Below are positions 1,017 to 11,970 of a stretch of 20,000 nucleotides of DNA, piece by piece. The notes below the pieces were generated by a model. The model saw nothing but the letters and a program-made list of their open reading frames with translations, did not search any database and was not told where the DNA came from. This stretch comes from an uncultured virus (IMG/VR IMGVR_UViG_3300028888_000136) (lineage: Duplodnaviria; Heunggongvirae; Uroviricota; Caudoviricetes), in IMG/VR virus record IMGVR_UViG_3300028888_000136. One strand, written 5' to 3'. Position 1 is the first letter of the stretch; each line of letters starts with the position of its first letter. Made by a program: the position numbers and the translations under genes.

Positions 1017-1045
1017 TTGATTTATTAGCTATTTATTTGTATAAT
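1017..1045 (+). promoter_or_regulatory. putative promoter of the replication operon
   Basis: TTGATT (1017-1022), 17-bp spacer, TATAAT (1040-1045). Confidence 0.55.
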
Positions 1046-1066
1046 AGTAATAGAAAGTAGCAGTGC

Positions 1067-1166
1067 GATACCACATAGCACATAGAGGAATAATGGCTGT
1101 CAGATTGGAACTTATGGTAGTGGTATCCCGTAACTCCAACGACAGCCGCTTTTTTAAGATACCACA
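1067..1166 (+). ncRNA. structured 5' leader / attenuator-like cis-regulatory RNA
   Basis: Stem GGCTGTC(1095-1101)/GACAGCC(1141-1147), TTGGA/TCCAA, TTATGG/CCGTAA, followed by T6 (1150-1155). Loop GTGGTATC (1120-1127) is the reverse complement of GATACCAC at 1067-1074 and 1158-1165. Confidence 0.6.
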
Positions 1167-1169
1167 ACA

Positions 1170-1709
1170 ATGTTACAGTTAACAAATTATTCCAAGCTAC
1201 CGAGCATAATATTTAACTCGGTGGAACTAAACCCAAATGAAAAAATAATGCTTGCATATTTGACCAACAGAGCAAATTATTTCAATAGAGAAGATGATTG
1301 GTTTGGTGTTCCTCTTTGTTGTTTTGCAAGTGATATAGGTTTCAATGACCACCACAAAGTGTCTGATGTCAGAAAGTCTCTTGTGAATATGGGTCTTATA
1401 GAGTATAAGAGAGGCGGCAATGCGAAATCATCCAAATACAAAGTATGCTGGGATAATATTTATGAAAACCTCACATCAAGATATGAAACAAAAACAGAAG
1501 AAGAGAATCAAATCAACGATGTGATAAATGAAAAAATAGAAGACGTAATAAACAATAAGAAATCAAATTACGACATATCGTTCGAAAATCCAGAGTTTCG
1601 TAAAAAACTTACCGCTATGAAGGAAAATATTTCAAGACAATTCAATGTAGCAGAAGAAGAGGTACGAAATAACATAATAAACACTTTTAATAATAAAATT
1701 AAAATTTAA
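1170..1709 (+). CDS. winged helix-turn-helix protein, putative replication initiator/organiser
   Basis: N-terminal pattern LNPNEKIMLAYL...WF...FASDIGF...KVSDVRKSLVNMGLIEYKRG...KYKV resembles phage replisome-organiser wHTH domains; lies next to the iteron-like boxes. Confidence 0.65.
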   Translation: MLQLTNYSKLPSIIFNSVELNPNEKIMLAYLTNRANYFNREDDWFGVPLCCFASDIGFNDHHKVSDVRKSLVNMGLIEYKRGGNAKSSKYKVCWDNIYENLTSRYETKTEEENQINDVINEKIEDVINNKKSNYDISFENPEFRKKLTAMKENISRQFNVAEEEVRNNIINTFNNKIKI

Positions 1710-4166: not shown

Positions 4167-4646
4167 ATGGCTAAATGGTTCAAATTGAAGGAGTTTTGTG
4201 TTTCAGGGTCACATCCAGAGCTGGTTGAGGTTCCGAAAGAAGGAACACCAATCTATAACAACATAGTATATCTGATGGAGAGGATGGACATAATAAGGGA
4301 AAAATGGAACGGTCCGATAATTGTCACCAGCGGATATAGACCACCGAAACTTAACAAGGCTGTAGGTTCAACTGCCAAGAATAGTGCGCATTTGGTCGGT
4401 CTCGCTGCCGATTTTCACCCGAAGAACGGAAAAATAATGGATTTGGCGAAACAGATAGCCAGTATGGAGATGGACTGGGACCAACTAATATTGGAGAAAT
4501 GCACAATAAAAAACAGTGAGATAATAAACTGCCAATGGCTACATCTTGGTTTCTCCAGAACAAACAACAGAAGACAAATTCTTGCTTGGGATGGCAAAAC
4601 CTACAAGCCAGTAAAAATAACCACAGAAAAGAAATTGACTGTTTAA
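4167..4646 (+). CDS. peptidase M15 family Zn-dependent peptidoglycan hydrolase (probable endolysin)
   Basis: PIIVTSGYR...LNKAVG...SAHLVGLAADF...DQLILE...WLHLGF: SxHxxGxAxD and WxH zinc-ligand motifs; ATG at 4167 preferred. Confidence 0.9.
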   Translation: MAKWFKLKEFCVSGSHPELVEVPKEGTPIYNNIVYLMERMDIIREKWNGPIIVTSGYRPPKLNKAVGSTAKNSAHLVGLAADFHPKNGKIMDLAKQIASMEMDWDQLILEKCTIKNSEIINCQWLHLGFSRTNNRRQILAWDGKTYKPVKITTEKKLTV

Positions 4647-5584
4647 TGGCAAGTAAGAACGAGAATTTACGCAAAGCTAAAAAAGCCAAAAATGATGAAT
4701 TCTTCACAAGAATAGAAGATATAGAGAAGGAGTTGGTTAATTACCAAGATTTTTTCAAAGACAAAGTGGTATATTGCAATTGTGACCATCCTACAGAGAG
4801 CAATTTCCCAAGATATTTCATTCTTAATTTTGAAAAGTTAGGTTTGAAAAAACTTGTTTCAACCTGTTTCATAAGTGACAGCAAAGGATGGGTTGGCACA
4901 AAAGAAAAAGACTGTGAATACACTATAGAGCAGCTTGCAAGTGACGGTGATTTCCGTTCCGAAGAGTGTATTGAATTTCTAAAAGAATGCGATGTTGTTG
5001 TGACCAACCCACCATTTAGTTTGTTTCGTGAGTATATTGCCCAACTGATTGAATACGAAAAAAAATTTTTAGTTATTGGAAACTTAAATGCTATCACTTA
5101 TAAAGATATTTTTTCCTTAATCAAAGATAATAAGATTTGGATGGGTACAACATATTTCAATGGTGGTGCAGCATATTTTTATGGTGATGCCAAAGTGTTT
5201 GATGTGAATAAGATTGCCAACCCAAAGAACGCTTGGGTGGAAAATGGTAAATTGTATTGGCGAGTTAATGGTGTTCGTTGGTTTACAAATATTGAGCATA
5301 AGAAGAGAAACACACCAATTGACATTTATAAGACCTATTCCGCAGAGAATTATCCAAAATATGATAACTACGATGCCATTGAGGTGTCAAAGGTTGTGGA
5401 GATTCCCGAAGATTACAAGGGAGTTATGGGTGTTCCCATTTCATTCCTTGACAAATATTGTCCTACACAATTTCAAATTGTGAAATTCCGTAAGGGTGAT
5501 GACAATAAAGATTTGTCGGTCAATGGTAAATGTCCTTATTTTAGAATTTTAATTAAGCGAGTTAAAAATAACGAAACAAAATAA
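4646..5584 (+). CDS. adenine-specific DNA methyltransferase, EcoRI family (orphan)
   Basis: NLRKAKKAKNDEFFT...VYCNCD...GDFRSEEC...VVTNPPFSLFREY...MGVPISFLDKY; NPPF motif IV; start overlaps the endolysin stop (TAATG). Confidence 0.92.
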   Translation: MASKNENLRKAKKAKNDEFFTRIEDIEKELVNYQDFFKDKVVYCNCDHPTESNFPRYFILNFEKLGLKKLVSTCFISDSKGWVGTKEKDCEYTIEQLASDGDFRSEECIEFLKECDVVVTNPPFSLFREYIAQLIEYEKKFLVIGNLNAITYKDIFSLIKDNKIWMGTTYFNGGAAYFYGDAKVFDVNKIANPKNAWVENGKLYWRVNGVRWFTNIEHKKRNTPIDIYKTYSAENYPKYDNYDAIEVSKVVEIPEDYKGVMGVPISFLDKYCPTQFQIVKFRKGDDNKDLSVNGKCPYFRILIKRVKNNETK

Positions 5585-5590
5585 ATATGA

Positions 5591-5989
5591 ATGTCCAAAA
5601 CAAAACACAAGAAAGATTGTGGAAAATTCAAATCGCATTTTGAATTGGAAGTATCTGAAAAAATGCCGACTGATAGCTATGAATGCGAGGAAATAGAGTA
5701 TGAAGTGCCAGTCATTGCAAGAGTGTATCATCCAGATTTCGTGACAGAGCCAGATGGAAAGAAAATATACTGGGAATGCAAGGGTAAACCAAGAAATCTT
5801 GAGGAAATGAAGAAGTATATCTACGTAAGAAATTCAAATCCAAATATAGATTTGAGGTTTATACTGATGGACAAAAAGACGCTGATGCCAAGAAGCAAGA
5901 AGACCACAGTTGCGGAATGGCTGAAAAAGAACGGATTCGTTTACTATTTATGGCCAGATATTCCAAAAAAACTTTTACAAAATTCTTGA
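5591..5989 (+). CDS. T7 endonuclease I-like Holliday junction resolvase
   Basis: FKSHFELEV...YE...IEY...YHPDF...WECKG...NPNIDLRFI...TTVAEWLKKNGF follows the phage endonuclease I pattern. Confidence 0.85.
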   Translation: MSKTKHKKDCGKFKSHFELEVSEKMPTDSYECEEIEYEVPVIARVYHPDFVTEPDGKKIYWECKGKPRNLEEMKKYIYVRNSNPNIDLRFILMDKKTLMPRSKKTTVAEWLKKNGFVYYLWPDIPKKLLQNS

Positions 5990-6014
5990 CATTTTCAGAA
6001 AAAAAAGATACAAT
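5986..6014 (+). promoter_or_regulatory. putative promoter
   Basis: TTGACA (5986-5991), 17-bp spacer, TACAAT (6009-6014), overlapping the resolvase stop codon. Confidence 0.5.
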
Positions 6015-6043
6015 TAAAATTGACTAAATTCTTCTAATACTGG

Positions 6044-6086
6044 CTGGGAGCGCATACAAGGTGTGTAGCTTCCAGTTTTTTTTTTT
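6044..6086 (+). terminator. intrinsic terminator 1
   Basis: CTGGGAGC-GCATAC-AAG-GTGTGT-A-GCTTCCAG followed by T11. Confidence 0.8.
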
Positions 6087-6090
6087 AACG

Positions 6091-6123
6091 AAGGGCTACC
6101 CATTTAGAGTAGCCCTTTTTTTT
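6091..6123. terminator. intrinsic terminator 2, possibly bidirectional
   Basis: AAGGGCTAC(6091-6099)/GTAGCCCTT(6109-6117); T-tract on the + strand, longer stem but weak U-tract on the - strand. Confidence 0.75.
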
Positions 6124-6165
6124 GGTCCAAGCCCAACACTGAAACTCGCACAAAGTCAAACGCGG

Positions 6166-6173
6166 CAAAGATA
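6166..6173 (-). promoter_or_regulatory. Bacteroidota-type -7 promoter element pointing into the non-coding gap
   Basis: Minus strand TATCTTTG (TAnnTTTG) followed by CCGC; no clear -33 TTTG. Confidence 0.55.
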
Positions 6174-7152: not shown

Positions 7153-7306
7153 TTGCACATTTTTTGGTTAAGTTTATACTCGTAACTATTTGATTTTCAA
7201 ATATGCCCGCCATTTTGATGCTGGCAAGACGAAATAATCCATATATTTCCCTCGCACAATCCATCTTATTGAATCAGAGGTAATTAAACCCTGATTAGTA
7301 ATTTAC

Positions 7307-7331
7307 ACCACCCAAAAAGGGTGGTTTTTTT
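7307..7331 (+). terminator. intrinsic terminator-like hairpin
   Basis: ACCACCC-AAAAA-GGGTGGT followed by a T-tract. Confidence 0.65.
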
Positions 7332-11896: not shown

Positions 11897-11970
11897 GGGC
11901 GAGTAGCTCAGTTGGCAGAGCATCTGGTTTGCAACCAGAGGGTCGTGGGTTCAAATCCCACCTGCGTCCA
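11897..11970 (+). tRNA. tRNA-Ala(TGC), extra G in the acceptor stem, CCA not encoded
   Basis: D arm GCTC/GAGC; anticodon arm TCTGG-TTTGCAA-CCAGA (TGC at 11930-11932); T arm GTGGG-TTCAAAT-CCCAC; acceptor GGGCGAG/CT(G)CGTCC with G3:U70 and A73. Confidence 0.9.

Follow-up and report, generated by a model that had tools for sequence, protein, structure and literature searches.

A probable RNA switch in the leader of a replication-initiator-like gene of an uncultured phage

The question raised by this locus is whether the short leader of a gene for a winged-helix protein, in a 20,000-nt stretch of DNA from an uncultured virus of the Caudoviricetes (IMG/VR IMGVR_UViG_3300028888_000136; this whole stretch is hereafter the window), acts as an RNA that controls the gene behind it. 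A sequence-only reading had proposed such an RNA-level element from a promoter-like site, a long hairpin followed by T6, and an apical loop complementary to two sites flanking that hairpin. Replication-gene silencing in temperate gut Bacteroidota phages is poorly described. We compared the leader with shuffled sequences, with a paralogous leader and with homologues read through their proteins, and conclude that it is very probably an RNA switch setting the level of the initiator protein, as far as this can be judged from sequence and computed folds.

Genomic context and host

The window belongs to a contig of 52,826 bases containing two related, syntenic phage units arranged one after the other, the proteins of which are about 24-95% alike. 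Along this contig (G000:C1 1-52826) the unit period is about 32 kb, a 243-nt repeat stands at 1 and 32621 in copies 96% alike, and one early gene region of the two units is 96% alike in DNA, versus 24-72% for the other proteins; the contig may be a chimeric assembly, or may represent prophages in tandem that have recently exchanged DNA. The phage is temperate and from the ruminant gut, with a probable host in the Bacteroidota. Terminase, portal, prohead protease and integrase genes are present in the window, and parts of it were matched in sheep-gut, rumen and bovine-gut sequencing runs (X2, X6, X7). The host assignment draws on exact TAnnTTTG boxes in the intergenic DNA, which is the promoter consensus described for Bacteroidota (PMC7366714), on A-rich start regions, and on weak terminase matches (26-27%), the best of which, among the matches listed, were mostly to Phocaeicola and Bacteroides phages. 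An integrase is present, yet no recognisable CI-like repressor was found among the 26 contig ORFs scanned with PHROGs, in agreement with the sequence-only reading; the sole 'transcriptional repressor' row of that scan (E 0.047) fell on the small terminase. Elsewhere in the window, a tRNA gene lies between the prohead protease and capsid genes (11898-11969), and a gene for an EcoRI-type adenine methyltransferase (4535-5584) is without a counterpart at the matching place in unit 2.

The gene behind the leader starts with an ATG at 1170 and encodes a replication-initiator-like winged-helix protein of 179 aa (1170-1709, plus strand; phrog_270, E 1.3e-6). Its structure model (pLDDT 87.8) has plasmid initiator domains as the nearest solved chains, with an E of 1.2e-3 that is just short of significance, and its homologues fall in HTH_36 clusters of the Atlas. 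One relative of 343 aa, P0040, has the initiator-like domain fused behind an N-terminal domain with PF04480 and PF18741. Past the initiator gene, two same-frame ORFs (1716-1970 and 1974-2345) are separated by one TAA and one codon, and may represent a single gene that is interrupted by a stop or translated by readthrough. Upstream of the promoter-like site, and outside the RNA, are three 30-nt palindromic repeats (838-964; family D1, 73-100% identity), which are candidate origin or initiator-binding sites, and several shorter palindromes with a core hexamer in common occupy 529-790.

A loop with an upstream and a downstream partner

The octamer GATACCAC occurs exactly at 1067-1074 (site 1) and at 1158-1165 (site 2) on the plus strand, and its complement occurs at 1120-1127; these three are the only exact matches in the window and in the whole contig. 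The complement occupies most of the apical loop (1118-1127), which costs 0.6 kcal/mol to open, at the tip of a long, interrupted, terminator-like stem (1095-1147, -21.8 kcal/mol) with arms 1095-1101/1141-1147, 1105-1109/1135-1139 and 1112-1117/1128-1133, in all 7+1+5+6 pairs. Site 1 is displayed by a small hairpin, H1, of four pairs and an 11-nt loop (1063-1081), whereas site 2 covers positions -12 to -5 relative to the initiator start codon. Between the stem and site 2 lies a U6 tract (1150-1155), the predicted point of termination. All of these elements lie on the plus strand and, with the hairpin, T6, loop and both complementary sites, the architecture first described for the leader stands as it was drawn.

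Of 20,000 shuffles of the flanks around a fixed hairpin, none produced an 8-nt complement of the loop on both sides, 27 produced one upstream and 98 one downstream. The fold of the leader (1046-1180) is by itself modestly better than that of shuffled sequences (z -1.96; 7/200). A hairpin scan of the contig gave 64 rows, three of which had a nearby complement of at least 8 nt, and all three were this leader or its paralogue; that scan caught the window leader on the minus strand only, and a later two-strand scan caught it on both. The two-strand scan, over 575,650 bases (the contig and 22 unrelated loci), passed five rows, three of them from the two leaders and the other two being look-alikes in the unrelated loci with an upstream partner only, so that both sites were found in the window leader only. 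A simple terminator scan omits the hairpin, whose loop exceeds the size that it accepts. Compared with 50 start regions, the loop matches strongly only its own site 2 (-12.2 kcal/mol, the next best being -7.9), and the idea of one loop regulating many genes was accordingly dropped. The sequence-only reading had suggested a comparison with Rfam, and a cmscan of the window against 4227 families returned no catalogued family at 1017-1172, with E values up to 5 admitted.

The promoter-like site at 1017-1045 was found where it had been reported, on the plus strand and with 10 of 12 positions matching, and would place the start of transcription at about 1044-1052; however, such matches are no commoner in the sequence than in shuffles (16 versus a mean of 17.3), and the site therefore does not rise above chance. 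In the paralogous leader, the stretch aligned with this site matches the Bacteroidota -7 box exactly, and the window leader departs from it by one mismatch. A related contig from X7 covers 975-1147 with seven differing letters and one gap; the differences listed are at 1028 and at five places in 1050-1062, and at most two more are possible in 1063-1147. They break two further pairings that we had considered, an outer helix of 1057-1062 and 1171-1176 that would cover the AUG and a pairing of the U-tract with 1052-1058. The RNA run X2 was set aside as evidence on expression or transcript ends, since it consists of contigs only and these also span DNA upstream of the promoter. Runs X8-X13, with small shares, did not enter the analysis.

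A paralogous leader with other letters

A paralogous leader lies at the same place in unit 2 (G000 44905-45027; L003 2906-3028), before an orphan gene of 196 aa, and aligns with the window leader at the core of the promoter, along the purine-rich linker and over parts of the stem. Its fold is strong (z -5.5). The loop can pair over 11 nt with an upstream site whose sequence is entirely unlike that of site 1 (4/20,000 shuffles). A 5' hairpin of five pairs and an 11-nt loop occupies the place of H1, and an ATG stands inside the upstream site. A second site was sought in the paralogue and rejected as not significant (823 of 2000 shuffles did as well), and the U-run is absent from it, hence the pairing with site 1 is the better conserved half of the arrangement. 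The first gene downstream of the paralogue is not a winged-helix homologue, and Rfam gave no match at this leader either. The cognate loop:site duplexes amount to -12 kcal/mol in the window and -17 kcal/mol in unit 2, whereas the cross-unit duplexes reach -3.4 to -5.4 kcal/mol; duplexes this weak between units fit what type-specific addresses would need.

Beyond these two, no relative of the leader or of its gene was found as DNA in the viral, metagenome and genome collections searched. One viral search returned two chance matches, and another gave 20 distant loci of annealing proteins, none of which has a further gene in common with the contig. Annotated phages and plasmids likewise held no such leader, with distant or chance matches only, and no entry listed in searches of the open-licence literature describes one for Bacteroidales or rumen phages, although the supplements of RNA-motif surveys could hold one.

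The region around the integrase holds structured elements of its own. Directly behind the integrase stop, a stretch of about 45 nt is conserved between the units (window 6115-6172 and L003 10400-10460, both on the minus strand), with a promoter-like box before it and a terminator hairpin after it; it is a candidate small RNA gene or attachment-site sequence. Facing the 3' end of the integrase, the window has on the plus strand a strong promoter-like site (11/12) and then two hairpins, the first with T11 and the other with T8, and no ORF (5986-6123), and unit 2 has a counterpart with promoter, hairpins and terminator (G000 52181-52306); both are candidate small RNA genes. In addition, a structured leader of about 170 nt precedes the integrase (7159-7330, minus strand; -45 kcal/mol), with a hairpin directly behind a promoter box and a 9-mer in common with the stretch behind the integrase. 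The idea that a small RNA encoded next to the integrase triggers the leader was not supported, the cognate pair in the window being not significant (37/40 shuffles). The unit-2 stretch behind the integrase does pair with an arm of the unit-2 hairpin (-21.7; 0/40 shuffles), one of 16 combinations tried.

Covariation in homologues read by back-translation

With two leaders only known as DNA, further leaders were sought in the translated N-terminal extensions of mis-called homologues, and four homologues carry an extension corresponding to translated leader. The sample obtained in this way is biased, because a sequence is visible only where its frame is open. Two of the four, the close homologues P0004 and P0039, form one 90% cluster and map without gaps on 1086-1150. 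None of the 18 stem pairs is broken in either, both have certain two-sided changes at 1113-1132 and 1114-1131, and P0039 has a further possible one at 1096-1146; a T-run compatible with the U6 tract is also present. In their loop, A1125 has become T, and the bases facing it in site 1 and site 2 have also changed, these altered loop:site pairs being certain under any codon choice. Compatible G-U wobbles favour an RNA of the plus strand, and the P0004 hairpin is better than those of 30 out of 30 shuffled peptides. In a blind test without mapping on the window, the match of loop and site 2 in P0004 and P0039 is not significant (1039 and 928 of 2000), as a consequence of codon degeneracy.

P0056 has a different upstream sequence, in which a TGG-containing segment pairs with a site at -12, seven of the eight pairs being certain; with four extensions tested, 23 of 2000 shuffled peptides did as well, and the hairpin that may be drawn for it is not significant (9/30). 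Reading the P0024 extension as a translated hairpin base was rejected, since shuffles were not beaten by the loop:site pairing (1085/2000) or by the fold (13/30).

The covariation supports pairing at the RNA level, in few sequences. The conservation of loop:target complementarity on which the sequence-only reading had staked its proposal is thus found at both sites in P0004 and P0039 and at site 1 in the paralogue, but not at the second site of the paralogue. The broader claim of an RNA-level element before a replication gene is borne out by complementarity kept through changed letters and by the phrog_270 assignment of the gene. The arrangement is real and probably functional, though thinly sampled.

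Folding order and a possible mechanism

In prefix folds of the window leader, a small hairpin forms, then a helix between site 1 and the loop segment while the 3' end lies at 1127-1140, and the long stem from 1147 onwards. The site 1:loop helix amounts to -15.5 to -17.5 kcal/mol, and the full stem to -25.3 kcal/mol at 1147. The leader of unit 2 folds in the same order, with a helix of -17 to -18 and a long stem of -26 to -36 kcal/mol. These are equilibrium folds that leave aside pseudoknots and kinetics, and it is from them that we infer a kinetic step, since the full stem beats the site 1 helix and read-through would have to rest on kinetics. Opening the loop, site 1 or site 2 costs less than 1 kcal/mol in each case, and the duplexes of the two sites with the loop are near equal (-12.3 and -12.2 kcal/mol). 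Site 1 lies 20 nt from the long stem and site 2 only 10 nt, a spacing that would allow site 1 to pair in cis and make site 2 easier to reach in trans; on the presumed geometry, a cis pseudoknot with site 2 looks strained, because 10 nt must span a stem of 19 pairs.

We are confident that this is a functional RNA leader in which loop and sites pair. How it works is less certain, and the particular mechanism that we favour, an RNA-only attenuator with logic like that of P4 CI whose loop would shield the start region as well, has by our estimate about an even prospect of being correct; it is favoured for the fold order, the accessible sites, the spacing, the coverage of the start region and the cross-unit specificity. 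By this mechanism, site 1 would, as computed, pair with the loop segment at a stage when the 3' arm of the long stem has yet to be transcribed, and the early helix would delay the terminator stem and favour read-through into the initiator gene. If a terminated leader RNA made earlier were already paired through its loop with site 1, the stem could form and transcription would stop at the U-tract, which would yield more of the short RNA, so that the off state would reinforce itself. The same loop, pairing more easily in trans than in cis, might cover -12 to -5 and block initiation, which assumes a host that relies on open start regions; in Flavobacterium, structure near the start has been described as lowering initiation (PMC6847099). 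The outcome would be a throttled synthesis of initiator, usable for prophage quiescence and type-specific immunity. Action in trans would need processing that removes the 5' part, because a terminated leader still contains site 1, which could mask the loop; the P4 CI RNA is made by processing (PMC4825925).

The same elements could be arranged otherwise. A switch acting purely in cis, with the loop pairing alternately with site 1, which leaves the start free, and with site 2, which covers it, perhaps under the influence of ribosomes translating a leader ORF, would have nothing acting in trans and only a secondary role for termination. It fits the accessibility of loop and sites and the equal energies of their duplexes, as well as a paralogue that lacks the U-run. 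Both DNA leaders also have a start codon in or beside site 1 and a frame open through the hairpin, in the window from GTG 1063 or ATG 1093 to 1182 on the plus strand and overlapping the initiator start. However, the signal of this possible ORF is weak (232 and 208 of 3000 shuffles did as well in the window and in unit 2, about 7-8%), the 10-nt link from the stem base to site 2 would be tight across 19 pairs, and no input signal is evident, and we regard a switch of this kind as unlikely. About as improbable, in our view, is a plasmid-style countertranscript of the IncI, IncL/M or pT181 type, an antisense RNA made from a minus-strand promoter just past the hairpin, which would kiss the mRNA loop with its own loop and block the pairing of the mRNA loop with the sites. 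A possible promoter of this kind does stand at the same place in both units: in the window as a weak match at 1154-1186 (-33 box 1186-1183; -7 box 1161-1154, with two mismatches and overlapping site 2; background about 3% per 45 nt), and in unit 2 as exact minus-strand boxes at G000 45042 and 45024 (background 0.5-3% per 45 nt for 45042). The antisense hairpins fold (-22.3 and -33.5) and are followed by pyrimidine-rich tails, and there are precedents (PMC8125031, PMC10286972, PMC8383071). Against this, the promoter patterns were chosen post hoc, and the T-to-A change of site 2 in P0004 and P0039 removes the TA of the window -7 box.

The least likely rival, and a very unlikely one, places the sites at the level of DNA, the three 8-mers being operators or iterons through which the initiator represses itself and the hairpin an ordinary terminator. 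It draws on the resemblance of the protein to plasmid initiators and on the core hexamer ATACCA, which occurs on either strand five times in 340-1045 versus 0.75 expected (1/1000 shuffles), twice within palindromes, in a region with the three long palindromic repeats at 838-964, and which P0056 retains. However, P0004 and P0039 differ in the recognition helix and yet have one address in common, and P0039 is nearer to the window protein and yet has an address that differs from that of the window. In unit 2, an 11-nt pairing occurs with no winged-helix homologue downstream, and the intergenic DNA there holds no further copies of the paralogue's address. One of the three copies in the window sits precisely within the apical loop, and wobble pairs are retained for one strand. 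The DNA-operator alternative is thus weakened.

Returning to the RNA-only attenuator, its widest form would be a lysogeny and immunity switch that dispenses with a repressor protein, in which the terminated leader is the trans repressor, the 8-11-nt address sets the immunity type and keeps tandem prophages orthogonal, and the leader belongs to a widespread, uncatalogued class in Bacteroidota phages that regulates without Shine-Dalgarno sites. Taken as a whole this is doubtful and we put it forward tentatively. Were it true, re-lettered addresses would let related prophages live in tandem without cross-talk, and a leader of about 125 nt with an exchangeable address of 8-11 nt would carry RNA immunity of the P4 type into a distant phylum. 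If the leader acts in trans, it would also be a compact, programmable regulator for use in hosts that translate without regard to Shine-Dalgarno sites. With two natural, orthogonal versions on a single contig, the idea could be tested directly.

Comparison with known systems

The closest likeness is to the CI RNA of satellite phage P4, which is complementary to seqA and seqC, up- and downstream of itself (PMC4825925). In both cases the regulator, a putative one here, derives from the leader of a replication operon and has complementary sites on both of its sides, premature termination is the likely output, and no repressor protein was found. Unlike P4 CI, the phage leader has a single 8-nt address in the tip of a terminator-like hairpin and a downstream site that directly touches the initiator start; there is no likeness to P4 CI in sequence or in Rfam, and the phage is probably one of a Bacteroidota host. 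The paralogous leader follows the two-site arrangement only at its upstream site. The C4 RNA of P1 and P7 has two seed segments and controls the icd-ant operon. It resembles the leader as an antisense element on the same transcript as its flanking targets in a temperate phage, but here there is one seed and an initiator gene, and no match to the Rfam c4 family. The c4 and c4-a1b1 motifs have been catalogued (PMC2864571).

The rep leaders of IncI, IncB and IncL/M plasmids, with their pseudoknot, leader peptide and antisense RNA I (PMC8125031, PMC10286972, PMC8383071), likewise have a hairpin whose loop is complementary to the start region of a replication-initiator gene, and the possible leader ORF ending at the rep start and the possible countertranscript would add to the likeness. 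However, the plasmid pseudoknot activates translation at a Shine-Dalgarno site, whereas the site in the phage leader covers -12 to -5 and is predicted to block translation, the host being one that lacks Shine-Dalgarno sites; the phage leader also has an extra upstream partner and a U-tract. With the antisense-driven attenuation of pT181 and pIP501 (PMC8383071), the leader has in common two alternative folds, one of them a terminator, as judged in the phage from the computed prefix folds and with a paralogue that lacks the U-run, and a default nascent fold that would prevent the terminator. In those plasmids the trigger is a countertranscript, whereas in the phage the best candidate is the leader's own loop.
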